A DNA stretch of 64,000 nucleotides from Verrucomicrobiota bacterium. Its GTDB lineage: Bacteria > Verrucomicrobiota > Verrucomicrobiia > Limisphaerales > JBBRPK01. The DNA lies in assembly GCA_038228235.1 (NCBI GenBank), contig JBBRPK010000007.1:5813-69812 (forward strand), given 5' to 3'. Numbering within the stretch: position 1 is the first letter of the stretch; every line of letters starts with the position of its first letter. Both the position numbers and the translations under genes were made by a program. The notes under the pieces were generated by a model. That model was not told the DNA's origin, did no database searches, and was given only the letters and a program-made list of their open reading frames with translations. This document shows, one piece after another, positions 54,158 through 64,000 of this stretch.

Positions 54158-55309
54158 ATGAAAACGAAGTCTCCGCAAATCAGGCGCATTCTCCTGGTGA
54201 AATGCCTCGCCCTCGTCGTCTTGTCCGGGTGCAATAAACCGGTCGGAGGGGCGAACGAAATCCGGGTGGGAGAGTTCGCCTCTCTCACCGGCAAAGAGGC
54301 CACTTTCGGCCAGATGTCTCACCACGGCACCGAACTGGCCATTGATGAAGTCAACGACGCGGGAGGTGTACTAGGTAAAAAGATCAAACTGCTTTACGAA
54401 GATGACCAATCAAAGCAGGGCGAACCCGCCACCGTCGTAAAGAAGCTTATTTCGCGGGACGGTGCGGTGGCGGTTTTGGGGGAGGTTGCTTCCTCCCGCT
54501 CCATGGAAGCGGCGCCGACTTGCCAGCAGAACAAAATTCCCATGATCTCCCCTGCTTCCACTAACGTAAAGCTGACCGAGATGGGCGATTACATCTTCCG
54601 GGTTTGCTTCACTGACGCCTTCCAGGGAAAGCTGCTGGCGAATTTCGCCAAACGGACCCTCAAAGCAAACAATGTTGCAATTCTGACGGATACCAAATCC
54701 GATTACAGTGTCGGTTTGAGCCGGGATTTCAATGCCCCCTTCGTGGCCAACGGCGGTAAGATTGTGGCGGAGCAGGTTTATAATGGCGGAGACAAAGATT
54801 TCAAGGGTCAACTCACCGCGATCAAAGCCGCAAACCCGGATGCCATCCTGGTTCCGGGCTACTACACGGACGTCGGACTCGTCGCCAAGCAGGCCAGGCA
54901 ACTCGGCATCATTGTGCCCCTTTTTGGGGGAGACGGTTGGGAATCCTCGAAGCTCATCGAAATAGGCGGTTCGGAAGTCGAAGGAACCTATTTCTCCACT
55001 CATTTCTCCCCGGAGGAGGTCTCGCCTGTAGTGCAGGACTTTGTCAAAAAGTTTCAAGCTAAATACCACGAAGTCCCCGACGCCATGGCCGCTTTAGGCT
55101 ACGATTCCGCCAGGGTGCTGGTGGATGCCATGAGACGGGCCGAAACTGTTGATGGCCCAAAACTTCGCGACGCCATTTCGGCTACGAAAGATTTTCCGGG
55201 CGTCACCGGGAAAATCACCTTGGATGAGAAAAGAAATGCAACCAAACCAGCCGTCATTCTCACTGTTAAGGACGGAAAATTTAAGTACGTCGAAACCGTA
55301 ATGCCCTGA
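54158..55309 (+). CDS. ABC transporter substrate-binding lipoprotein, branched-chain amino acid (LivK/LivJ-like) family
   Basis: The lipobox reads 'LVVLSGC'. 'IRVGEFASLTGKEATFGQ..GTELAIDEVNDAGGVLGKKIKLLYEDDQS' is a typical Peripla_BP_6 N-terminus. Confidence 0.85.
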   Translation: MKTKSPQIRRILLVKCLALVVLSGCNKPVGGANEIRVGEFASLTGKEATFGQMSHHGTELAIDEVNDAGGVLGKKIKLLYEDDQSKQGEPATVVKKLISRDGAVAVLGEVASSRSMEAAPTCQQNKIPMISPASTNVKLTEMGDYIFRVCFTDAFQGKLLANFAKRTLKANNVAILTDTKSDYSVGLSRDFNAPFVANGGKIVAEQVYNGGDKDFKGQLTAIKAANPDAILVPGYYTDVGLVAKQARQLGIIVPLFGGDGWESSKLIEIGGSEVEGTYFSTHFSPEEVSPVVQDFVKKFQAKYHEVPDAMAALGYDSARVLVDAMRRAETVDGPKLRDAISATKDFPGVTGKITLDEKRNATKPAVILTVKDGKFKYVETVMP

Positions 55310-55325
55310 GGGCTGGGTCACCTGA

Positions 55326-56234
55326 TTGAGCGAATTTTTTCAGCAATTGATTAACGGCCTGGCGCTCGGGTCGATTTATGCGCTGATTGCCTTGGGTTAC
55401 ACGATGGTTTATGGCGTTCTGCGGTTCATTAATTTTGCTCACGGAGATATCTTCATGGTGGGCGCCTTCATGGGATTTTATCTGACCCCCATGGCGGGAC
55501 AAGTGTTCGGGCCTCATTCGCTGGCCTGCGCGTTGATGGTGTTAGTGCTTTCCATGTTGATCTGTGCCATGCTGGGTATCCTTATTGAACGGCTGGCCTA
55601 CCGGCCCTTGCGGAATAAGCCCAAATTGGCGGTGCTTATCACTGCCATCGGGGTCTCGCTCCTGATAGAATATGTCGGCCAGCATCCCATGGTATTCACC
55701 GCCTCGCCGAAAACTTTTCCGGAACTGGTTCATAGCCGGAACTTCCATCTCGGTGCCGTCGTGCTGAGCAGTAACGAGGTCCTTGTCCTGGCGGTTACGA
55801 TCGTGTTGTTAGTCGGCTTGGAACTGATCGTTCAGAAAACCAAAATGGGCACCGCCATGCGCGCCGTCTCCTTCAATGCGCCAGCCGCGGCGCTGATGGG
55901 CATCAACCTCGATGTAGTCATCTCGTTCACCTTCGGTTTAGGCTCGGCCCTGGCGGCGGCGGGCGGGATTCTTTATGCGATGAAGTACCCTTCAATCGAT
56001 CCCTTGATGGGAATCATGCCTGGGCTGAAAGCTTTTACGGCAGCGGTGCTGGGGGGTATCGGCAACATTCCCGGCGCCGCCCTGGGAGGGCTGGTGATTG
56101 GCATCGTCGAAACTTTCGTGGGCGGCAGCCATTGGTCGAATTATCGGGACGCGATTTCTTTTGCGATTTTGATTTTGATTCTTCTCTTCAAACCCTCCGG
56201 GCTGCTTGGCAAAGGCGAGATCGAAAAGGTCTGA
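55326..56234 (+). CDS. livH: branched-chain amino acid ABC transporter permease
   Basis: It starts at TTG. 'QQLINGLALGSIYALIALGYTMVYGVLRFINFAHGD' is the canonical LivH N-terminus. Confidence 0.9.
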   Translation: MSEFFQQLINGLALGSIYALIALGYTMVYGVLRFINFAHGDIFMVGAFMGFYLTPMAGQVFGPHSLACALMVLVLSMLICAMLGILIERLAYRPLRNKPKLAVLITAIGVSLLIEYVGQHPMVFTASPKTFPELVHSRNFHLGAVVLSSNEVLVLAVTIVLLVGLELIVQKTKMGTAMRAVSFNAPAAALMGINLDVVISFTFGLGSALAAAGGILYAMKYPSIDPLMGIMPGLKAFTAAVLGGIGNIPGAALGGLVIGIVETFVGGSHWSNYRDAISFAILILILLFKPSGLLGKGEIEKV

Positions 56235-57199
56235 TGAAAGAGAAGTTGTTTTTGCTGGCGGCCCTCATCGTCAGTTTTCTGTTCTCCCTCGGTTCCGGGC
56301 ACATCAACCCCTACTATCTCGACATCGTTCTCGGCATCGGCATTAACATCATTCTGGCGGTGAGTCTTAATTTTATTAACGGCTACACCGGCCAATTTTC
56401 ACTGGGCCATGCTGGATTTATGGCGGTAGGAGCTTACACGTGCGCCTCCGTGACTCTATTTCTTGGCCCTATGGTGTTGCCGCTTTTCGGTGGCGCCATT
56501 GAAATGTTAGGAGTTCCGGCGCTTTTTCTGATGGCGTTGTGCGCGGGCGGCGTTTTGGCCGCCGCTGTGGGTTGGTTGGTGGGGGTGCCCTCGCTGCGCC
56601 TCAAAGGAGATTACCTGGCCATCGTCACCCTCGGCTTCGGAGAGATCATCCGAGTTATTTTTCAAAATATTCAAGCGGTCGGCGGCCCCAGCGGTTTGAA
56701 AGGAATTCAAACTTATACGAACCTTTTTTGGACCTATGCCTGGGCCGCCCTCGCCATCTTTACCGTGCTCATGCTTGTGCACTCCACCTACGGACGCGGC
56801 TTTCTGGCCGTGCATGACGATGAGATTGCCGCCGCCGCCATGGGCGTCAACACCACACGCTACAAAGTCACTGCCTTCGTAGTTGGCTCTTTTTTCGCCG
56901 GAGTTGCTGGCGGACTTTACGCCCACCTCAAAACATTTATTTCCCCGAGCGGATTTGATTTCCTCAAGTCAATTGACATCGTGGTGATGGTAATCCTGGG
57001 CGGGATGGGCAATACCCCCGGAGTGATTCTGGCCGCGATCCTATTAACCTTGTTGCCGGAGGTGTTGCGGCCAGTGGCACAGTATCGCATGATCCTCTAT
57101 GCGCTGCTCATAATCATTATCATGCTGACTCGTCCGCAGGGTCTTTTCACCCTGCGTGGTTTGCGCCCTCAATCGGCTCGCGACTCAACCCATGTCTGA
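56234..57199 (+). CDS. livM: branched-chain amino acid ABC transporter permease
   Basis: The ATG at 56234 overlaps the livH stop (TGATG). The LivM signature reads 'LNFINGYTGQFSLGHAGFMAVGAY'. Confidence 0.9.
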   Translation: MKEKLFLLAALIVSFLFSLGSGHINPYYLDIVLGIGINIILAVSLNFINGYTGQFSLGHAGFMAVGAYTCASVTLFLGPMVLPLFGGAIEMLGVPALFLMALCAGGVLAAAVGWLVGVPSLRLKGDYLAIVTLGFGEIIRVIFQNIQAVGGPSGLKGIQTYTNLFWTYAWAALAIFTVLMLVHSTYGRGFLAVHDDEIAAAAMGVNTTRYKVTAFVVGSFFAGVAGGLYAHLKTFISPSGFDFLKSIDIVVMVILGGMGNTPGVILAAILLTLLPEVLRPVAQYRMILYALLIIIIMLTRPQGLFTLRGLRPQSARDSTHV

Positions 57200-57995
57200 G
57201 GCCAGCACCCAGCCTGCTCTCCTCCAAATGGAGCGTTGCACCATCCGTTTCGGCGGATTGACGGCCGTGTCTGATTTTCAGCTAAGCGTTGGTCCCAACG
57301 AATTAGTGGGGTTGATAGGGCCCAATGGGGCGGGCAAAACGACCGCCTTCAATCTCATCACTGGGGTCTATCAACCGACCGAAGGAAAGATTCTCTTTAA
57401 CGGCCAATCCCTGCTGCGCCTCAAGCCCCACCAAATCACCAACCGAGGGGTGGCGCGCACTTTTCAGAACATTCGCCTCTTCCCGTCCATGACGGTGTTC
57501 GACAATGTCAGGGTTGCTTTTCGTCTGCATTCAAAAGGCGGCCTGCTTTCCGCTTTGTGGCGGGGCCGATCATTTTTGAAAGAGGAAGAAACAATTGCAA
57601 AAAGCGTTGTGGAAATCCTGGACATTTTTCATCTGGCCAGTGCCCGGAATACCATGGCCAAGAACCTCCCTTATGGTGACCAGCGCCGCTTGGAAATCGT
57701 TCGCGCTCTGGCCACGCGGCCCAAGCTCCTGCTCCTGGACGAGCCGGCGGCGGGCATGAACCCCACCGAGAAAGTGGAATTGATGCGCCTCATCCGGTTT
57801 ATCAAGGAGAAATACCGAATCTCGGTGCTGCTGGTGGAGCATGACATGCAAGTGGTGATGGGCATTTGTGAGAGAATCGCCGTGCTGGATTACGGCGTAA
57901 AGATCGCCGAAGGCACGCCCGATAAGGTCCGCAGTGACCCGAAAGTGATTGAGGCCTATCTCGGGGAGGAGCATCCTGTGAACAAGTTGGGATAA
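57192..57995 (+). CDS. livG: branched-chain amino acid ABC transporter ATP-binding protein
   Basis: Walker A reads 'GPNGAGKTT', the signature reads 'LPYGDQRRLEI' and Walker B reads 'LLLLDEPAAG'. It overlaps livM by 8 nt. Confidence 0.9.
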   Translation: MSEASTQPALLQMERCTIRFGGLTAVSDFQLSVGPNELVGLIGPNGAGKTTAFNLITGVYQPTEGKILFNGQSLLRLKPHQITNRGVARTFQNIRLFPSMTVFDNVRVAFRLHSKGGLLSALWRGRSFLKEEETIAKSVVEILDIFHLASARNTMAKNLPYGDQRRLEIVRALATRPKLLLLDEPAAGMNPTEKVELMRLIRFIKEKYRISVLLVEHDMQVVMGICERIAVLDYGVKIAEGTPDKVRSDPKVIEAYLGEEHPVNKLG

Positions 57996-58780
57996 TGAGG
58001 AACCTGGATGCAAATCCATCGGGGCAAAGCAAACCTGCTTCAGCCATTGCCTTGCCTCTGGCAGCTTCGCCTCTGCTGCAGCTCAAGGATCTTTTCGTCA
58101 GCTACGGCGCCGTGGCCGCCTTGCAGGGCGTCTCATTGTTAGTCAATTCAGGGGAAATCGTGACGTTGATTGGCTCCAATGGGGCAGGCAAAAGCACGAC
58201 CCTCAAAACCATTTCCGGCCTGATCAAACCACGCCGCGGCCAAATCCTTCACCACGGTGAAAACATCAGCATGCTGCCACCCCACCGGATTGTTCAGCGC
58301 GGGCTTTCACAGGTGCCGGAGGGCCGCATGATTTTCGCCAATCTGACGGTCTTGGAAAATTTGAAGATGGGCGCTTATCTGCAAAAAGACAAAACGGTAA
58401 TTGCGCAGGAACTGGAAAACGTGTTCGGCATCTTCCCCCGACTCAAGGAGAGAACCAAACAGATCGCAGGCACCCTCTCTGGGGGTGAACAACAGATGCT
58501 GGCGATTGGCCGGGCACTCATGAGCAAGCCCAAGTTCCTGATGCTCGATGAGCCGTCCCTTGGAATTGCCCCGCTCCTGGTCAAGACCATTTTTGAAAAC
58601 ATTGTTCAAATAAATCAGGAGCACGGCATTACCATCCTGCTGGTGGAACAAAACGCGAACCTGGCTTTGCAAATTGCGCATACGGCCTATGTGCTGGAAA
58701 CTGGCCGCATCACTTTGCAGGGGCCTGCCAAAGAATTGCGAAGCAATCCACAAGTGAAAAGCGCGTATCTGGGAGGGTGA
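57995..58780 (+). CDS. livF: branched-chain amino acid ABC transporter ATP-binding protein
   Basis: Walker A reads 'GSNGAGKST', the signature reads 'LSGGEQQMLAIGRAL' and Walker B reads 'FLMLDEPSLG'. It overlaps the livG stop by 1 nt. Confidence 0.9.
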   Translation: MRNLDANPSGQSKPASAIALPLAASPLLQLKDLFVSYGAVAALQGVSLLVNSGEIVTLIGSNGAGKSTTLKTISGLIKPRRGQILHHGENISMLPPHRIVQRGLSQVPEGRMIFANLTVLENLKMGAYLQKDKTVIAQELENVFGIFPRLKERTKQIAGTLSGGEQQMLAIGRALMSKPKFLMLDEPSLGIAPLLVKTIFENIVQINQEHGITILLVEQNANLALQIAHTAYVLETGRITLQGPAKELRSNPQVKSAYLGG

Positions 58781-58956: not shown

Positions 58957-60084
58957 TTAGTCAGGGAGGCTCGAGAGGCGATGTGTGGGTTGTGGTTTGC
59001 CAGGACGGAAATGTTCTGAGTGCTCCAGTTTTACGCTGAGGCCGGGGAATTGGGCGCTGAGTTCTGCCACTGCGCGGGTCACCGCATCGAGCAATCTCTC
59101 AGGCGCGGCTTCAGCCCGGCAATTGACGATGAGTTGGCCGCTGCGGATGGTTTCGGGCAACTCCAGCGACAACTCAGGCACGAAATCATTTCGGACGAGG
59201 TTTATCACTGCGATGTCCCCGAGGCCTTCGCTGGGGCTGAGGGTCATTTTGAGGTGAGCGACTTCGGCGTGGTTGGCGTTAAGCAACTCCTGTATTCGCC
59301 GGGCGAGGGATTGCAGCAGCACATTGCCATCGAAGGCCGTTGCCGCCTCCAATCCCACCGTGCAGTTTAGCCATCCGAGCAAGGCCTCGCCTTCGGCATA
59401 CACCTTGTAATCCACGGCCATCGCCTCGCCGCCAGACTGTTCGGCAGACGCGAGGCGCGAAAACCATTCGTTGAGTCCCGCGCCATTCCGGGCAGAGATG
59501 GCCAGGATTTCCGCTTTGGGAAACTCAGCAGACAATGTTGCCGTCAATTGCGCAAGCGCGGCCGGATCGAGCAACTCGCGTTTGTTGATGACGATGAAGT
59601 CGGCCTCTTCGAGTTGCTTGCGGTAAATGTAGAGGACCTTTTCTGAAAATTTCCCCCCTGCTGCCAAGCCCAGCATGCGCTGCGCTCGAACCGAATCCAC
59701 GAGCACGCTGAGGGGAGCAATGGAGAAATGGCCCCCATACATACGCCGCAACGGATAAGTGACGGTGGCGACGAGGTCGGTGCAACTGCCGACTGGCTCG
59801 GCGATAAAAACATCGGGCCGGGATTTTTCGGTTAGTTTGTTCGCCGCGTCCACGAGGGAGTTGAAACGGCAACAGAAACAGCCCCCGGGAATTTCCTCGG
59901 TCGCGAAACCCCGGGAGCGGAGCACGGCGGTATCGACAAGTTCGCTGCCCTGATCGTTCGTGATGAGGCCCACCTTCAGACCTTCGGCGGTGAGCTGTTG
60001 CGCCAGTTTGGCGACGCAAGTGGTTTTGCCCGCGCCGAGGAAACCGCCAATCATGATATAACGTGGTTTGGTCAGAAGATTCAT
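58957..60084 (-). CDS. divergent G3E-family P-loop GTPase (CobW/HypB/UreG-like metallochaperone family) with an extra C-terminal domain
   Basis: Walker A reads 'IGGFLGAGKTT' and the CobW-type Cys motif reads 'PGGCFCC'. 'FIAEPVGSCTDL' looks Walker B/switch-like and 'VINKRE' is NKxD-like. The ATG overlaps the stop of the GcvH-like gene (ATGA). Confidence 0.75.
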   Translation of the reverse strand: MNLLTKPRYIMIGGFLGAGKTTCVAKLAQQLTAEGLKVGLITNDQGSELVDTAVLRSRGFATEEIPGGCFCCRFNSLVDAANKLTEKSRPDVFIAEPVGSCTDLVATVTYPLRRMYGGHFSIAPLSVLVDSVRAQRMLGLAAGGKFSEKVLYIYRKQLEEADFIVINKRELLDPAALAQLTATLSAEFPKAEILAISARNGAGLNEWFSRLASAEQSGGEAMAVDYKVYAEGEALLGWLNCTVGLEAATAFDGNVLLQSLARRIQELLNANHAEVAHLKMTLSPSEGLGDIAVINLVRNDFVPELSLELPETIRSGQLIVNCRAEAAPERLLDAVTRAVAELSAQFPGLSVKLEHSEHFRPGKPQPTHRLSSLPD

Positions 60085-60557
60085 TTGCTTTCATCAATCT
60101 TCTGCTTTTCCAGGATTCGGTCAATGGTCTGGTCGAGAATTGTTTTGTAGGCCTGAACATCCACGCATTTGGCGTCGGGCCGGCCGCGGACCTCGTAAAG
60201 CCAGCCAGCGCCATACGGATCTTTGCTGATGGCGCTAATTTTTTCCTTAAGAGCGGGATTCGCGCTGGAAAACTTCCCTTCGAGGACGCAATACACGTCC
60301 GAGATCGCCTTGAAGCCCTCGACCCAGCCGATGATTTGTCCACTGGTCACCGGAGAGTCAGGCGTAAGTTCAAAACCACAATCCACCATATCACCGAGCA
60401 TGCGCGTGGCAAATTTCGTCAGTCCCACCCGCCACAACTCGTCAGCTTGCCGTGCCAGCCACAAGTGTGAGGGACTGTAGCGATAGTCAACCGGCAGGTG
60501 GGTGACAAAATGCGAGCGTTTGTAGTGCAGGGACTTTGGTTTGGCCGCATCGGTCAT
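60081..60557 (-). CDS. glycine-cleavage H-protein-like (lipoyl/biotinyl-domain) protein
   Basis: 'YSPSHLWL..WRVGLTKFATRMLGDMV..ELTPDSPVTSGQIIGWVEGFKAISDVYCVLEGKF...DPYGAGWLYEV' aligns with the GcvH pattern. The Lys of 'ESVKAASD' is retained as 'EGFKAISD'. Confidence 0.75.
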   Translation of the reverse strand: MTDAAKPKSLHYKRSHFVTHLPVDYRYSPSHLWLARQADELWRVGLTKFATRMLGDMVDCGFELTPDSPVTSGQIIGWVEGFKAISDVYCVLEGKFSSANPALKEKISAISKDPYGAGWLYEVRGRPDAKCVDVQAYKTILDQTIDRILEKQKIDESK

Positions 60558-60596
60558 ATTGCGGGGAGTACCCTAGCTCCCGGGACGGAACCTTTG

Positions 60597-60630
60597 CAAG
60601 GTTTGGCACAAGGTTTGGCACAAGGTTGGA
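60597..60630 (+). repeat. tandem 12-mer array (GTTTGGCACAAG x2 plus partial flanking copies) in a divergent promoter region
   Basis: The sequence reads CAAG GTTTGGCACAAG GTTTGGCACAAG GTTGGA. It lies 40 nt upstream of the GcvH-like start (-) and ~125 nt upstream of the cysteine desulfurase start (+). Confidence 0.6.
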
Positions 60631-60752
60631 TAGTGTGACCATTTTGGTTTTGAATTGAGGGCGGGTCCTTCACCTGTAGGCTCTGGGCAAATGGAACATC
60701 TAGCAGTGGAAATCCCTAATAAAGCCTCGCAAGTCAAGGCGTCCGTTGTATT

Positions 60753-61916
60753 TTGCAACAAGGCCGCATGATTTATCTCGACCACAACGCCACCGCTCCA
60801 CTGCATCCCGCTGCGCGGCAGGCCTGGTTGGAGGCGGTGGACAAATTCATCGGAAACCCTTCCAGCCCTCATCGCATAGGCAGCCGGGCCGATGCTGCGC
60901 TGGAAGATGCCAGGTCGCGGCTGGCGCAGATGATAGGCAGCCAGACGCACGATATCGTATGGACTTCAGGAGCCACCGAAGCGAATAACCAGGTGCTGCA
61001 CCATTTCGCGGGAACCCTGCCTTGCGACTCGTCCGTCTGCATTTCGCGCATTGAACATCCCAGTGTAATTGAACCCGCAACGCATTATTTTGGGGCGCGA
61101 GTGCGGTGGATTCCGGTCAACCGTGATGGGGTGGTGGATTTACAATGGCTGGCCGAAGAATTGGCGCAACGCCGGCCTGGCCTGGTCGCAATAATGGCAG
61201 CCAATAATGTGACCGGAGTCATTCAGCCCTGGGAGCAAGCCGCCCAACTTTGCCGCCGCTGGGAAGTGCCCTGTTTTTGCGACGCGGCGCAATGGGCGGG
61301 CAAGGAATCCGCAGCCGGCCTGGGGGCCTGTGATTTTGTGAGCGGATGCGCCCACAAGGTGGGCGGGCCGCGTGGAATCGGTTTTCTGAAAGGCCCCACG
61401 CAGGGCGGCTTCAAACCCTTTCTGTTTGGCGGACCACAGGAGGAAGGACGGCGCGCGGGCACGGAGAATGTCGCCGGAGTGCTGGCATTGATGGCAGTGT
61501 TAGAATTCCGGCAGGGTTTGATGGGTCAAAAGGAGGCCCGCCGACAATTGCGCGACCGTTTTGTCCAACGCATGATAGGGGAGTTGCCTGACGTCGAAAT
61601 CGTAGGAGCTTCACAACCCCGGCTCTGGAATACTGTGGCCGCCATGTTGCCGGAGGTGGATTGCCGCCAACGCTGGGTAGTGAAGCTGGACAAACTAGGG
61701 GTGGCAGTTTCGAGCGGTTCGGCATGTTCCAGCGGCAAAGAGGAGCCTTCCCCGATTTTGCTGGCGATGGGCTATGCGCCCGGGCAGGCCGGACGGGTGC
61801 TGCGCTTCAGCAGCGGGTGGGAAACAGAAGAGAAAGATTGGGATGGATTGCTCACCGCGATAAAGCAAGCTGCGAATGAACTTAGGAAAACGATCTCAGC
61901 TGAGAGCCTGTTATAA
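60753..61916 (+). CDS. cysteine desulfurase (class V aminotransferase, NifS/IscS-like)
   Basis: The N-terminus reads 'IYLDHNATAP', the PLP-lysine context reads 'SGCAHKVGGPRGIGFL' and the catalytic Cys loop reads 'SSGSACSSG'. An alternative ATG lies at 60768. Confidence 0.85.
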   Translation: MQQGRMIYLDHNATAPLHPAARQAWLEAVDKFIGNPSSPHRIGSRADAALEDARSRLAQMIGSQTHDIVWTSGATEANNQVLHHFAGTLPCDSSVCISRIEHPSVIEPATHYFGARVRWIPVNRDGVVDLQWLAEELAQRRPGLVAIMAANNVTGVIQPWEQAAQLCRRWEVPCFCDAAQWAGKESAAGLGACDFVSGCAHKVGGPRGIGFLKGPTQGGFKPFLFGGPQEEGRRAGTENVAGVLALMAVLEFRQGLMGQKEARRQLRDRFVQRMIGELPDVEIVGASQPRLWNTVAAMLPEVDCRQRWVVKLDKLGVAVSSGSACSSGKEEPSPILLAMGYAPGQAGRVLRFSSGWETEEKDWDGLLTAIKQAANELRKTISAESLL

Positions 61917-62524: not shown

Positions 62525-63244
62525 ATGGGAAACGACCTCAACACTCTAAATCTGCGAGAGATTCCTACCCTCCTGAGAGGCGAACCGGAGCCGAGTAATC
62601 AGGCCATTCAACACTGCACACCACGGCGCGTTTGGCTCTATCTGGCTGTAATTTTCGCGGGAGCGGGAATTTTCGGCGCGGGCGTTGGTTGTTGGCGTGG
62701 GCCGCTTCAGGCACTTTACACTTCCGTCAAGCTCCCGCTCGTTCTTCTGCTCACCACGCTGGGTAACGCAGTGCTCAACGGAATGCTCGCCCCCTTGCTC
62801 GGATTGAATATCAGCTTTCGCCAATCGCTCACTGCCATCCTGATGAGTTTCACAATCGCGGCGGTGATCCTCGGCTCGTTCAGTCCGCTTCTTTTCTTTC
62901 TCCTGTGGAACGCGCCGGCTCTGGGCGAGAAAGGCGATCTCTCCGAAGGGGCGCACAATCTTATCCTGGTGGTGCAGTCGCTCATCATTGGCTTCGCCGG
63001 GGTGGCGTCAAACCTGCGGTTGGGTCAATTGCTGTGTCGGCTTAGCGGAAGTCCTATCGTCGCGCGCAAAATCCTTTTCGGGTGGCTGGCGGTGAATCTT
63101 TTGCTGGGCGCTCAACTTTCCTGGAACTTTCGACCGTTTGTGGGGGCGCCTGGATTGCCCATCGAATTTCTGAGGAAGAACGCTTTCGAAGGAAATTTTT
63201 TCGAAATCATTTTCAACGCCGCGCGCCATCTGCTCTTTCACTGA
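62525..63244 (+). CDS. polytopic membrane protein (5-6 TM), Yip1-like topology, paralog of the next gene
   Basis: Hydrophobic segments include 'VWLYLAVIFAGAGIFGAGVG', 'LPLVLLLTTLGNAVLNGMLAPLL' and 'LTAILMSFTIAAVILGSFSPLLFFLLW'. The C-terminal 'FRPFVGAPGLPIEFLRKNAFEGNFFE' matches the next ORF. Confidence 0.65.
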   Translation: MGNDLNTLNLREIPTLLRGEPEPSNQAIQHCTPRRVWLYLAVIFAGAGIFGAGVGCWRGPLQALYTSVKLPLVLLLTTLGNAVLNGMLAPLLGLNISFRQSLTAILMSFTIAAVILGSFSPLLFFLLWNAPALGEKGDLSEGAHNLILVVQSLIIGFAGVASNLRLGQLLCRLSGSPIVARKILFGWLAVNLLLGAQLSWNFRPFVGAPGLPIEFLRKNAFEGNFFEIIFNAARHLLFH

Positions 63245-63278: not shown

Positions 63279-64000
63279 ATGAGCGATAGCGATTACCTGC
63301 CCCCTCCCATCCCTCCTCAAATTCAGAACCAGCCCCCGACGCTGCCGGCGTTACCGTTGGAGGAGACCCTGGAGGATCGCGAGCCGGTGTCGGGTGTCCT
63401 GCCCGCGGTCGAAGCAATCCTCCGGCAACCGCGGCGGATTCTGCGCCAGCTTCGGCAGGAAGGCCACGGCAGTTTGATCGCGTGCCTTATATTGATCGCA
63501 GTCGCTTGCAGTCTGGTTTACGGGCTGGTCGTTGGCAGCTTCTCGCGAGGCGACCAGCTTTATCAGTTCTGGACCGCGCCCGTCAAAATCGCGCTCGGGC
63601 TGGTCCTCTCCGCTTTGATTTGCCTGCCCAGCCTTTACATCTTTTCCTGCCTGAGCGGTTCTCCGGCGCGCCTCGTGGAAGTGTTTGGGGTTCTGGCAGG
63701 GGTGTTAGCTTTGACCACGGTTCTGCTAATTGGTTTCGCGCCCGTGGCCTGGGTTTTCTCCGAGTCCACCAAATCGCTGCCAGCCATTAGCGCCCTTCAT
63801 CTGTTTTTTTGGCTGGTGGCGACATATTTCGGCTTGCGATTTTTGCACACCGGTTTCGCTCACCTGGGCGCCAAATCCAATGGTGGCGTGAAAGTCTGGG
63901 TCGTGATTTTTCTCCTGGTGGCCTTGCAAATGACTACCGCCCTTCGTCCGATCGTGGGGACGGCTCCCACTTTCCTCCCTGCGGAAAAAAAGTTCTTTGT
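63279..64000 (+). CDS. polytopic membrane protein with Pro-rich N-terminus (Yip1-like), 3'-truncated by the window edge
   Basis: This ORF is not in the supplied track because no stop occurs before the window end. My own translation from ATG 63279 gives 'MSDSDYLPPPIPPQIQNQPPTLPALPLEETLEDREPVSGVLPAVEAILRQPRRILRQLRQEGHGSLIACLILIAVACSLVYG...ALRPIVGTAPTFLPAEKKFF', with no stop codon to nt 64000. Confidence 0.65.
   Translation, partial: MSDSDYLPPPIPPQIQNQPPTLPALPLEETLEDREPVSGVLPAVEAILRQPRRILRQLRQEGHGSLIACLILIAVACSLVYGLVVGSFSRGDQLYQFWTAPVKIALGLVLSALICLPSLYIFSCLSGSPARLVEVFGVLAGVLALTTVLLIGFAPVAWVFSESTKSLPAISALHLFFWLVATYFGLRFLHTGFAHLGAKSNGGVKVWVVIFLLVALQMTTALRPIVGTAPTFLPAEKKFF

Follow-up and report, generated by a model that had tools for sequence, protein, structure and literature searches.

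A GcvH-like protein, a G3E-family GTPase and a cysteine desulfurase as a candidate helper module for an orphan isoprenoid gene set in Verrucomicrobiota

Described systems and layout of the locus

The known clients of G3E GTPases are urease, hydrogenase, B12 mutases and the zinc- or cobalamin-linked targets of COG0523 proteins, and members of the group are defined by a Walker A motif (GxxGxGK[ST]), a Walker B motif (ExxG) and a guanine-specificity motif (NKxD). Lipoate-binding proteins of the LbpA type, part of the sHdr system, are described in the excerpts of the literature used here as GcvH-like proteins that function outside glycine cleavage together with Fe-S and sulfur-transfer proteins. 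The SHC-like enzymes of Planctomycetes and Verrucomicrobia, according to the parts of Santana-Molina et al. 2020 (PMC7306690) that were consulted, keep their catalytic residues and usually have a polyprenyl synthase nearby, their product being unknown.

The window, that is, the whole stretch of DNA analysed (64,000 nucleotides of contig JBBRPK010000007.1 of a Verrucomicrobiota genome), carries a GcvH-like gene and a G3E GTPase gene on one strand and a cysteine desulfurase gene on the other (Table 1). The overlap of the first two genes and the divergent desulfurase 195 bp away had been proposed in a sequence-only reading; the ORFs proved to be just as described there. At the junction, TCAT on the plus strand corresponds to ATGA on the minus strand, so that the GTPase ATG overlaps the TGA of the GcvH-like gene, an arrangement typical of translational coupling. 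The desulfurase ORF starts with TTG, an ATG being found 15 nt further in.

Table 1. Features of the locus (positions within the window)
Feature	Position	Strand	Length and basis
G3E-family GTPase	58957..60084	-	375 aa; ORF list and Pfam
GcvH-like (H-protein fold) paralog	60081..60557	-	158 aa; ORF list and Pfam
ATGA overlap, GcvH-like stop / GTPase start	60081..60084	-	sequence
Divergent intergenic region	60558..60752	.	195 bp; ORF ends
Tandem 12-mer CAAGGTTTGGCA, 2.6 copies	60597..60627	+	TRF score 62, 100% matches
NifS/IscS-type class-V cysteine desulfurase	60753..61916	+	387 aa; ORF list and Pfam

A large, unnamed family of G3E GTPases

The GTPase was the only G3E protein recovered by genome-wide searches. 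It matched Pfam PF02492 (cobW/HypB/UreG) with 87.1 bits (cut-off 20.7) over residues 10-193, residues 194-375 having no Pfam match, and is built of a G domain (approximately residues 5-215) and a family-specific C-terminal domain (approximately residues 216-375). When the G3E motif definitions were applied, GGFLGAGKTT (P-loop) and EPVG were present, and NKRE occupied the NKxD position. In an alignment of the window GTPase with 80 relatives, GGCFCC was found in 80 and EPVGSCTD in all 81 sequences, in keeping with the 375-aa G3E GTPase with GGCFCC and EPVGSCTDL motifs that had been recognised from the sequence. The INKRE motif noted alongside them is present in the window protein but is not a family trait, since NKRE occurred in just 3 of the 81 sequences, most having [NST]KxD. 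Four cysteines (C69, C71, C72 and C101) were invariant across 41 diverse family members, the extra invariant cysteine of the family being located in EPVGSCTD. GGCFCC aligns with GCICC of YjiA, and a structure of that protein (PDB 4ixn) is titled as Zn(II)-bound YjiA with C66A and C67A mutations.

Scores for the GTPase were below every NCBIfam equivalog cut-off (CobW, 53.1 vs 332.1; ZigA, 45.4 vs 600; PRK11537, 32.5 vs 361; CobW_rel_Se, 70.4 vs 180; HypB, 47.1 vs 121.2; MeaB, 25.9 vs 240.75), and the UreG model gave no match at E <= 0.01. In a tree whose reference rows came from Verrucomicrobiota only, the family formed a clade with an SH-aLRT support of 99, COG0523 one with 93, and HypB, UreG and MeaB each their own (98-100). 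By NCBIfam scores, family HMM and tree, the protein thus falls in no characterised subfamily; it represents an unnamed family of large size (850 clusters at 50% identity, E <= 1e-30), whose clade stands apart from COG0523, HypB, UreG and MeaB.

The AF2 model of the GTPase (pLDDT 95.2) had YjiA, HypB, MeaB and UreG as best Foldseek matches, YjiA being the top match (4e-12). The extra C-terminal domain seen in the sequence is real, comprising about 160 aa modelled (pLDDT 92) as a ferredoxin-like sandwich. Searched alone, it gave no PDB match in Foldseek at E <= 0.001, and ESM Atlas returned only unnamed 'hypothetical' clusters for residues 216-375. In VIA-align the leading matches were to a ferredoxin-fold protein designed de novo (Z 10.1) and to the dimerisation domains of M20-type amidohydrolases (Z 8.0-8.6, rmsd 3.2-3.3, approximately 105 residues); Z values in this range are common among generic folds, and no function was therefore inferred for the domain.

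With COG0523 proteins (YjiA, ZigA, CobW, ZNG1), which were the top scorers among other G3E proteins against the family HMM (59-88 bits), the GTPase shares the GxxGxGKTT P-loop, a CxCC in the same position, the ExxG Walker B motif and a two-domain build. However, CobW_C (PF07683) was found neither on the GTPase nor anywhere in the genome, the C-terminal sandwich is a different domain, the cysteine in EPVGSCTD is additional, the tree clades are separate, and the neighbouring genes are not those of zinc homeostasis or cobalamin. HypB, UreG and MeaB share the G-domain fold (HypB, target-normalised TM 0.70, rmsd 3.6; UreG, 0.73; MeaB also matched), and their genes, like that of the window GTPase, adjoin client or accessory genes, whereas cut-offs and clades set the window GTPase apart from them. 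No hydrogenase, urease or mutase genes were found near it, and no HypB, UreG or MeaB GTPases in this genome. The finding defines a further large G3E family with four invariant cysteines and a C-terminal domain of its own.

A conserved gene pair linked to an isoprenoid gene set

The GcvH-like protein matched Pfam GCV_H (PF01597) with 68.1 bits (cut-off 22.2). Its Lys83, within VEGFKAISD, aligned with the lysine of VESTKSVSD in the solved GcvH 3ift, and the position was K in 42 of 42 GcvH-like orthologs, which bears out the modifiable-lysine context (EGFKAISD) claimed from the sequence. The protein carries its own N- and C-terminal extensions (KRSxFxTxLP...), and its identity to canonical H proteins is 30-35%. 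We take the aligned lysine to be the lipoyl site of H proteins. Although fold and lysine context are those of GcvH, the protein scored below both NCBIfam GcvH cut-offs (NF002270, 85 vs 117; TIGR00527, 69.6 vs 115.85) and its gene is unlinked to gcvT or gcvP. A gcvT-gcvH pair is located on contig C4 (canonical gcvH, 144 bits) and gcvP on C85; the window protein is thus a paralog of the canonical H protein and not the only H protein of the genome. The absence of gcvT, gcvP and lipoate-ligase genes noted for the window extends to its whole contig, genes of glycine cleavage and for lipoate enzymes being found on C4, C85, C27, C49, C15 and C271. LipA is encoded elsewhere in the genome (369 bits, cut-off 310), as are three ORFs of the BPL_LplA_LipB (ligase/transferase) family on other contigs; since no dedicated lipoate ligase accompanies the pair, lipoylation of Lys83 is assumed here.

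The desulfurase matched Pfam Aminotran_5 (PF00266) with 190.9 bits, and its best NCBIfam match was NifS (262.5 bits, cut-off 530.75). It carries SSGSACSS near the C-terminus, presumably the catalytic cysteine loop. Five further tblastn matches to cysteine desulfurase were obtained in the genome.

Among 80 related GTPase loci, 76 could be evaluated, and in 41 of these, from several phyla, a GcvH-like ortholog was located upstream of the GTPase gene, always on the same strand; the conservation as neighbours on which the sequence-only reading had staked its claim was thus observed. The two genes were at most 140 nt apart in 39 of the 41 loci and shared an ATGA junction in 14, and the adjacent GcvH-like gene was missing at the remaining 35 loci. 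In the window's own clade (24 rows, as defined by a quick tree of the 81 GTPases), the pair was present in 21 of 21 evaluable loci. At 16 related loci a desulfurase ortholog (at least 399 bits) lay upstream of the pair in divergent orientation. No description of the GcvH-like/GTPase pair was found in the literature. A complex prediction for the two proteins scored 0.00 in both runs, which gives no answer and speaks neither for nor against binding.

Downstream of the pair, within 6 kb, 28 of the 41 loci carried at least one of six partner genes, encoding a small four-Cys protein (c5), a di-cluster ferredoxin-domain protein (c1), a radical SAM enzyme, a fusion of DUF116 to a polyprenyl-diphosphate synthase (DUF116::PPS), a single alpha/alpha-toroid protein and an SHC-like class II cyclase, the typical order being c5-c1-c7-c3-c6-c8. 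By record titles, such loci occur in Verrucomicrobiota, Planctomycetota, Acidobacteriota, Armatimonadota and Abditibacteriota. In this genome all six are present but split: c5-c1-c7-c3-c6 are contiguous on contig C14, and the cyclase gene follows the desulfurase gene on the window's contig (C7) after approximately 2.2 kb, shortly beyond the end of the window. The cyclase has SQHop_cyclase domains and a DxDD motif (DADD at 354), as expected of the SHC-like clade in the consulted parts of PMC7306690; in contrast, the description of that clade, to the same extent, does not include a GcvH-like/GTPase/desulfurase module, and the terms 'radical SAM' and 'GTPase' are absent from the supplementary file. 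The module genes are hereby tied to cyclases whose product is still sought by those who study bacterial lipids and biomarkers.

Ten genomes in which no cluster accompanies the GTPase gene were tested, and all ten encoded DUF116::PPS elsewhere; of five Verrucomicrobiaceae-type genomes with a lone GTPase gene, four also carried the radical SAM gene and, standing alone, a GcvH-like ortholog (146-158 bits). In genome G110 the GTPase and DUF116::PPS were present, and the GcvH-like ortholog and the radical SAM gene were not found with the queries used. Of 61 evenly sampled Verrucomicrobiota genomes, 3 contained the GTPase family, 2 the GcvH-like protein and 5 DUF116::PPS; in three a more divergent DUF116::PPS (48-49% identity) occurred without GTPase or GcvH-like protein, and in one the GTPase occurred without either. 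The phyletic link of the pair to DUF116::PPS is imperfect. As the pair is conserved, the GcvH-like protein is not the sole H protein and the GTPase falls in no characterised subfamily, the earlier label of an 'uncharacterised cofactor, metal or persulfide delivery module' stays a fair description, but an incomplete one, the trio apparently being the accessory part of a larger conserved gene set.

Proposed role and competing explanations

The reading we favour, with a probability of roughly 0.55, is that the trio is a sulfur, metal or Fe-S and swinging-arm helper module for an orphan isoprenoid pathway, with chemistry that we infer; the gene set as a whole presumably makes a cyclic polyprenoid. 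The desulfurase would mobilise sulfur from cysteine, and the GTPase, through its CxCC and Cys101 site and GTP switch, would equip a client with a metal or Fe-S centre, a step modelled on other G3E chaperones. The likeliest clients would be the small Cys protein and the ferredoxin, whose genes come next after the GTPase gene in intact clusters. A hint at the client comes from a natural fusion (P0192, 730 aa), in which the GTPase is linked to a ferredoxin region resembling c1 (49% identity, E 1.6e-28) and for which IcmF, a MeaB-mutase fusion (PDB 4xc6), is a precedent. The GcvH-like protein, lipoylated at Lys83 by the housekeeping machinery, would act as a swinging-arm dithiol, sulfur or electron carrier between the Fe-S proteins and the radical SAM/DUF116 enzyme, by analogy with LbpA of sHdr. 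Both GcvH-like proteins apparently serve outside glycine cleavage, but the one in the window has a G3E GTPase as partner and a wider set that is isoprenoid-related, and no Hdr-like, DsrE, TusA or sLpl/LipS genes were seen among the conserved neighbours (commonest clusters, annotated by Pfam/NCBIfam). The GTPase family gains candidate partners in the H-protein paralog, the small Cys protein and the ferredoxin. A more elaborate version, which we regard as a long shot, makes the GcvH-like protein the scaffold for assembling a new thiolated compound, a cofactor or a lipid precursor, tethered to its lysine. In this scheme the radical SAM enzyme, in the manner of LipA, would put desulfurase-derived sulfur into an acyl or prenyl chain bound to Lys83, and after each turnover the Cys-rich GTPase would restore, via c5/c1, the Fe-S cluster that had been sacrificed. 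If true, Fe-S clusters would for the first time join mononuclear metals and cobalamin as centres shown to be serviced by a G3E GTPase.

The contexts of the GTPase family are varied, and its role may for that reason exceed the isoprenoid pathway. Besides P0192, fusions to MIP (P0169, P0230 and P0173), an ArsR/SmtB-type HTH (P0122), PadR and an ArsF-family thioredoxin-like domain (P0172; 81 bits, cut-off 60) were found, and some clades adjoin ArsR/SmtB regulators, MIP channels, PHO4-family transporters or sulfatases instead. The GTPase could accordingly act as a general chaperone that matures or repairs Cys-rich Fe-S or thiol redox proteins, and the trio as a free-standing sulfur/Fe-S supply unit, the terpenoid link being one lineage-specific use of several. 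The size of the family, the 35 of 76 loci lacking a GcvH-like neighbour, the separation of the trio from five partner genes in this genome and the three sampled genomes with DUF116::PPS and no GTPase are consistent with this explanation, which we consider unlikely, if deserving of some weight, because the window's clade always has the GcvH-like gene adjacent and usually the cluster too, the cyclase gene is still within approximately 6 kb of the trio here, four of the five lone-GTPase genomes still carry the set in dispersed form, and the other desulfurase homologs are available for general Fe-S assembly. The same fusions and neighbours could point to a thiophilic metalloid, with the four-Cys GTPase and a lipoyl dithiol binding As(III) or Sb(III) in order to sequester it or pass it on; arsenite is known to target dihydrolipoyl groups. 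This is more doubtful still: such neighbours are absent from the locus and, with the sole exception of a PHO4-family gene in L008, from the window's clade, the ArsR-MIP pair that this genome does possess is located on a different contig (C58), the MIP scores best as a generic MIP/aquaporin Z and below the aquaglyceroporin cut-off, and no arsC, arsB/acr3 or arsA was seen among the annotated conserved neighbours. ArsR/SmtB regulators, moreover, sense many things, sulfane sulfur included, according to the portion of the source consulted. ArsEFG received only passing mentions in the literature found.

H proteins serve as lipoyl relays in some Firmicutes, and the H-protein fold and lipoyl lysine are kept here, so that the GcvH-like protein might be a second glycine-cleavage H protein or a relay intermediate, its pairing with the GTPase being incidental. 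We give this very little credence, given the canonical gcvT-gcvH and gcvP genes elsewhere, the sub-threshold scores against both GcvH models, an overlapping or near-abutting GTPase gene in 39 of 41 loci across phyla, and conserved neighbours among which no gcvT, gcvP, lipB, lipM or lplA was seen. Returning to the helper module, the split cluster in this genome identifies the genes that remain linked once the cluster has come apart, namely those for the desulfurase, the H-like protein and the GTPase, and these three therefore constitute a minimal unit for expression and testing.

Two membrane ORFs between the desulfurase and cyclase genes were rejected as members of the set, having no Pfam/NCBIfam family and no homolog among the 80 related loci. 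The 195-bp region had been called a shared promoter region with a 12-mer array; the region and a small array are there, but the promoter was not recovered, as a sigma-70-type scan gave nothing above chance within it, and the single site in the 3.5 kb scanned was within the GcvH-like gene, shuffled sequences giving no fewer. The 12-mer was rejected as a reused or shared regulatory word, exact copies numbering three in the 6.36-Mb genome (two at the locus, one on contig C129), and none was seen in an exact-copy search in front of the C14 partner genes or the cyclase. The array contains TGGCAC-N5-TTGG, which we take to be a near-match to the sigma-54 consensus.

Gene organization and conservation of the pair

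The observation made in the sequence-only reading, of overlapping genes for a G3E GTPase and a GcvH-like protein opposite a desulfurase gene, was confirmed as a whole, and an ORF check placed all three genes where that reading had them (see table). The ATGA overlap is real, the end of the GTPase ATG and the A that follows it making up the GcvH-like TGA stop, and the desulfurase gene diverges from the pair across a 195-bp gap that holds a perfect tandem 12-mer array of 2.6 copies. All three products matched a Pfam family and fell below every curated NCBIfam equivalog cut-off. The accompanying interpretation, a cofactor, metal or persulfide delivery module, was supported in part: the pair is conserved, but the trio is not self-standing and belongs with a larger gene set.

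Coordinates of features at the locus (contig C7, which carries the window) and of the gene cluster on contig C14 of the same genome (G000)
Feature	Position in window	Other coordinates	Strand	Length or Pfam match
Five co-oriented ORFs	54158-58780		plus	
G3E GTPase gene (ORF)	58957-60084		minus	cobW/HypB/UreG, 87.1 bits, confined to residues 10-193
GcvH-like gene (ORF)	60081-60557		minus	GCV_H, 68.1 bits
Desulfurase gene (ORF)	60753-61916		plus	Aminotran_5, 190.9 bits
Intervening ORF 1	62525-63244		plus	239 aa
Intervening ORF 2	63279 to past window end		plus	250 aa
SHC-like class II cyclase gene	~64102-65922	L089:2415-4235 = G000:C7:69914-71734	minus	SQHop_cyclase_C, 138 bits
c5-c1-c7-c3-c6 cluster		L088 (G000:C14:32000-44000):3269-8568	minus	

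Relatives were collected by a pattern scan with one genome per species, and the best 80 of 586 loci were kept. By phmmer, a GcvH-like ORF was present in 41 of the 80 GTPase loci; it was upstream of the GTPase gene and co-oriented with it every time. Four of the 80 could not be evaluated because the GTPase lay at a contig end. Nearly all of these ORFs (39/41) stopped no more than 140 nt from the inferred GTPase start, and 14 of the 41 pairs had the ATGA junction seen in the window. A quick tree built from the 81 GTPases placed the window GTPase in a starred clade (97) of 24 rows, in which the GcvH-like neighbour was found at all 21 evaluable loci. It was likewise retained in a second clade of 22 rows, with record titles naming Planctomycetota, Acidobacteriota, Armatimonadota, Abditibacteriota and Verrucomicrobiota. 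High-scoring desulfurase orthologs (at least 399 bits) lay divergently upstream in 16 loci, all within the window's clade.

Rows titled 'Akkermansia muciniphila' (L008/L028, one bin holding two cluster copies), 'Chitinophaga pinensis' (L047), 'Haliangiales' (L010) and 'Limnocylindria' (L066) nested in Verrucomicrobiota clades; several MAG labels thus look wrong for their position in the GTPase tree, and title-based phylum counts need care. At one locus from a Chthoniobacter MAG (L032:6102-7329, minus strand) the desulfurase ortholog was split into three ORF fragments (215, 132 and 73 bits), which could be due to assembly frameshifts or gene decay, and the adjacent GcvH-like ORF was extended to 216 aa.

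Placement of the GTPase

A search of 1.84 billion representatives returned 850 clusters of the GTPase family at E ≤1e-30, and the best 150 of these aligned mostly over their full length, C-terminal half included. Four cysteines, C69, C71 and C72 (GCFCC) and C101 (EPVGSCTD), were invariant in 41 diverse members, as were the C-terminal motifs VDYxxYAxGEAxLGWLN, AHxK, NxR and PxPTHR. Among the motifs singled out from the sequence alone, counted over the window GTPase and 80 close relatives, GGCFCC (80/81) and EPVGSCTD (81/81) held, but INKRE (3/81) did not prove to be a family trait. The full-length AlphaFold model (pLDDT 95.2) had a G domain resembling YjiA, HypB, MeaB and UreG in structure comparison; a separate model of the C-terminal 160 residues (pLDDT 92) showed a ferredoxin-like alpha/beta sandwich with generic structural neighbours only.

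Against Verrucomicrobiota proteins, the family HMM scored 59-88 bits for COG0523, 33-53 for HypB, 13-29 for MeaB and 14-22 for UreG. In a G-domain tree of 21 family, 12 COG0523, 8 HypB, 8 UreG and 8 MeaB rows, with references from one phylum, each group formed one side of a branch (SH-aLRT 99, 93, 98, 99 and 100, respectively), and the order of branching among the groups was not fixed because long branches meet. Profile searches of the window's genome found no HypB, UreG, MeaB or CobW_C proteins, and no strong PF02492 match besides the window GTPase. The GTPase is a member of a distinct and large G3E family, a new subfamily within the known G3E kind.

A larger gene set, split in this genome

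Neighbour clustering and annotation resolved a recurrent operon 3' of the GTPase, consisting of genes for c5 (132 aa, four conserved Cys, no Pfam family), c1 (286 aa, with a di-cluster ferredoxin domain), c7 (radical SAM enzyme), c3 (a fusion of DUF116 and polyprenyl-diphosphate synthase, DUF116::PPS), c6 (single alpha/alpha-toroid protein) and c8 (SHC-like cyclase). At least one of the six lay within 6 kb in 28 of the 41 pair-bearing loci. SHC-like cyclases are described in Planctomycetes and Verrucomicrobia, usually near a polyprenyl synthase and with a product given as unknown, in passages of Santana-Molina et al. (2020; PMC7306690), the supplement to which does not contain 'radical SAM' or 'GTPase' in its text; a passage of a 2015 comparative genomics study (PMC5898192) predicts DUF116 to be a membrane-anchored, Cys-rich metal-binding domain.

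Within the window, none of the six genes was found 3' of the GTPase, and all six are encoded in the genome. Five are contiguous on contig C14, where the radical SAM gene had its best NCBIfam matches to NirJ/AhbC-like cores, far under the cut-offs. The cyclase gene lies just beyond window base 64000, about 2.2 kb past the desulfurase gene and convergent with the desulfurase side; its product was below the hopene-cyclase cut-off (108 vs 431) and has DADD at residue 354, the DxDD motif being retained in 8 of 9 aligned sequences. With five partners on C14 and the cyclase near the trio on C7, the genome thus holds the cluster in broken form, in which the desulfurase, GcvH-like and GTPase genes stayed together, near the cyclase. 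The two ORFs between desulfurase and cyclase, with about five and four hydrophobic segments, respectively, belonged to no Pfam or NCBIfam family and lacked homologs at the 80 related loci. On the other side, 3' of the GTPase and on the opposite strand, lie five ORFs whose translations suggest a binding protein, two permeases and two ATPases, as in a Liv-type ABC transporter for branched-chain amino acids.

Dispersed versions were found in other genomes. DUF116::PPS was encoded elsewhere in 10 of 10 genomes (five with only the pair at the GTPase locus, five without pair or cluster there), and was solitary in the four regions inspected. Of five 'lone GTPase' genomes (Verrucomicrobiaceae type), four had a solitary GcvH-like ortholog (146-158 bits, vs ~50 for their canonical H protein) and the radical SAM gene, c5 and c1 adjoining in one; Brevifollis gellanilyticus NBRC 108608, one of the four, has DUF116::PPS as well. 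In the fifth (G110) neither gene was found with the queries used. Among 61 evenly sampled Verrucomicrobiota genomes, three had the GTPase family, two the GcvH-like protein and five DUF116::PPS. All three occurred together in one genome besides the window's, a divergent DUF116::PPS without the other two in three, and the GTPase without the other two in one. These mixed counts indicate that the co-occurrence is real but not strict.

The GcvH-like paralog and possible clients of the GTPase

Lys83 of the GcvH-like protein lines up with the Lys in H proteins of solved structure. The genome, 6.36 Mb in 355 contigs and 93% complete, also encodes a canonical pair of gcvT and gcvH on contig C4 (this gcvH scoring 144 bits), gcvP on C85, LipA on C27 and three ORFs of the BPL_LplA_LipB family, none of them linked to the GcvH-like gene, so that both glycine cleavage and lipoylation can proceed in this organism without it. 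The GcvH-like protein is a paralog of the canonical H protein, and its pairing with a GTPase is undescribed in the literature searched; the window contributes the split arrangement, the G3E placement of the GTPase and the fusion evidence.

G3E chaperones, H proteins and LbpA carriers serve as models for a proposed mechanism, in which the desulfurase would supply persulfide sulfur and the GTPase would use its four cysteines and GTP switching to place a metal or Fe-S centre in c5/c1, or else in the radical SAM enzyme or the DUF116 domain. The GcvH-like protein would be lipoylated by housekeeping enzymes and carry reducing equivalents or sulfur among them. The best hint at a client comes from P0192, a natural fusion in which a member of the GTPase family is joined to a c1-like ferredoxin (49% identity, E 1.6e-28).

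Other contexts keep alive, as rival readings, a more general role of the family or a metalloid-related one. Clades without the GcvH-like neighbour often adjoin genes for ArsR/SmtB regulators, MIP channels, PHO4-family transporters or sulfatases, and family members are fused to MIP (P0169, P0230 and P0173), an ArsR-type HTH (P0122), PadR (P0191) and a membrane-anchored, CxxC-containing ArsF-family domain (P0172; 81 bits vs a cut-off of 60); P0231 is also among the natural fusions. Together with the ferredoxin fusion, these suggest roles for the family in several redox or transport systems. In the window's genome, genes for an ArsR-type regulator and an MIP channel overlap each other on another contig (G000:C58:25510-26392), unlinked to the GTPase.
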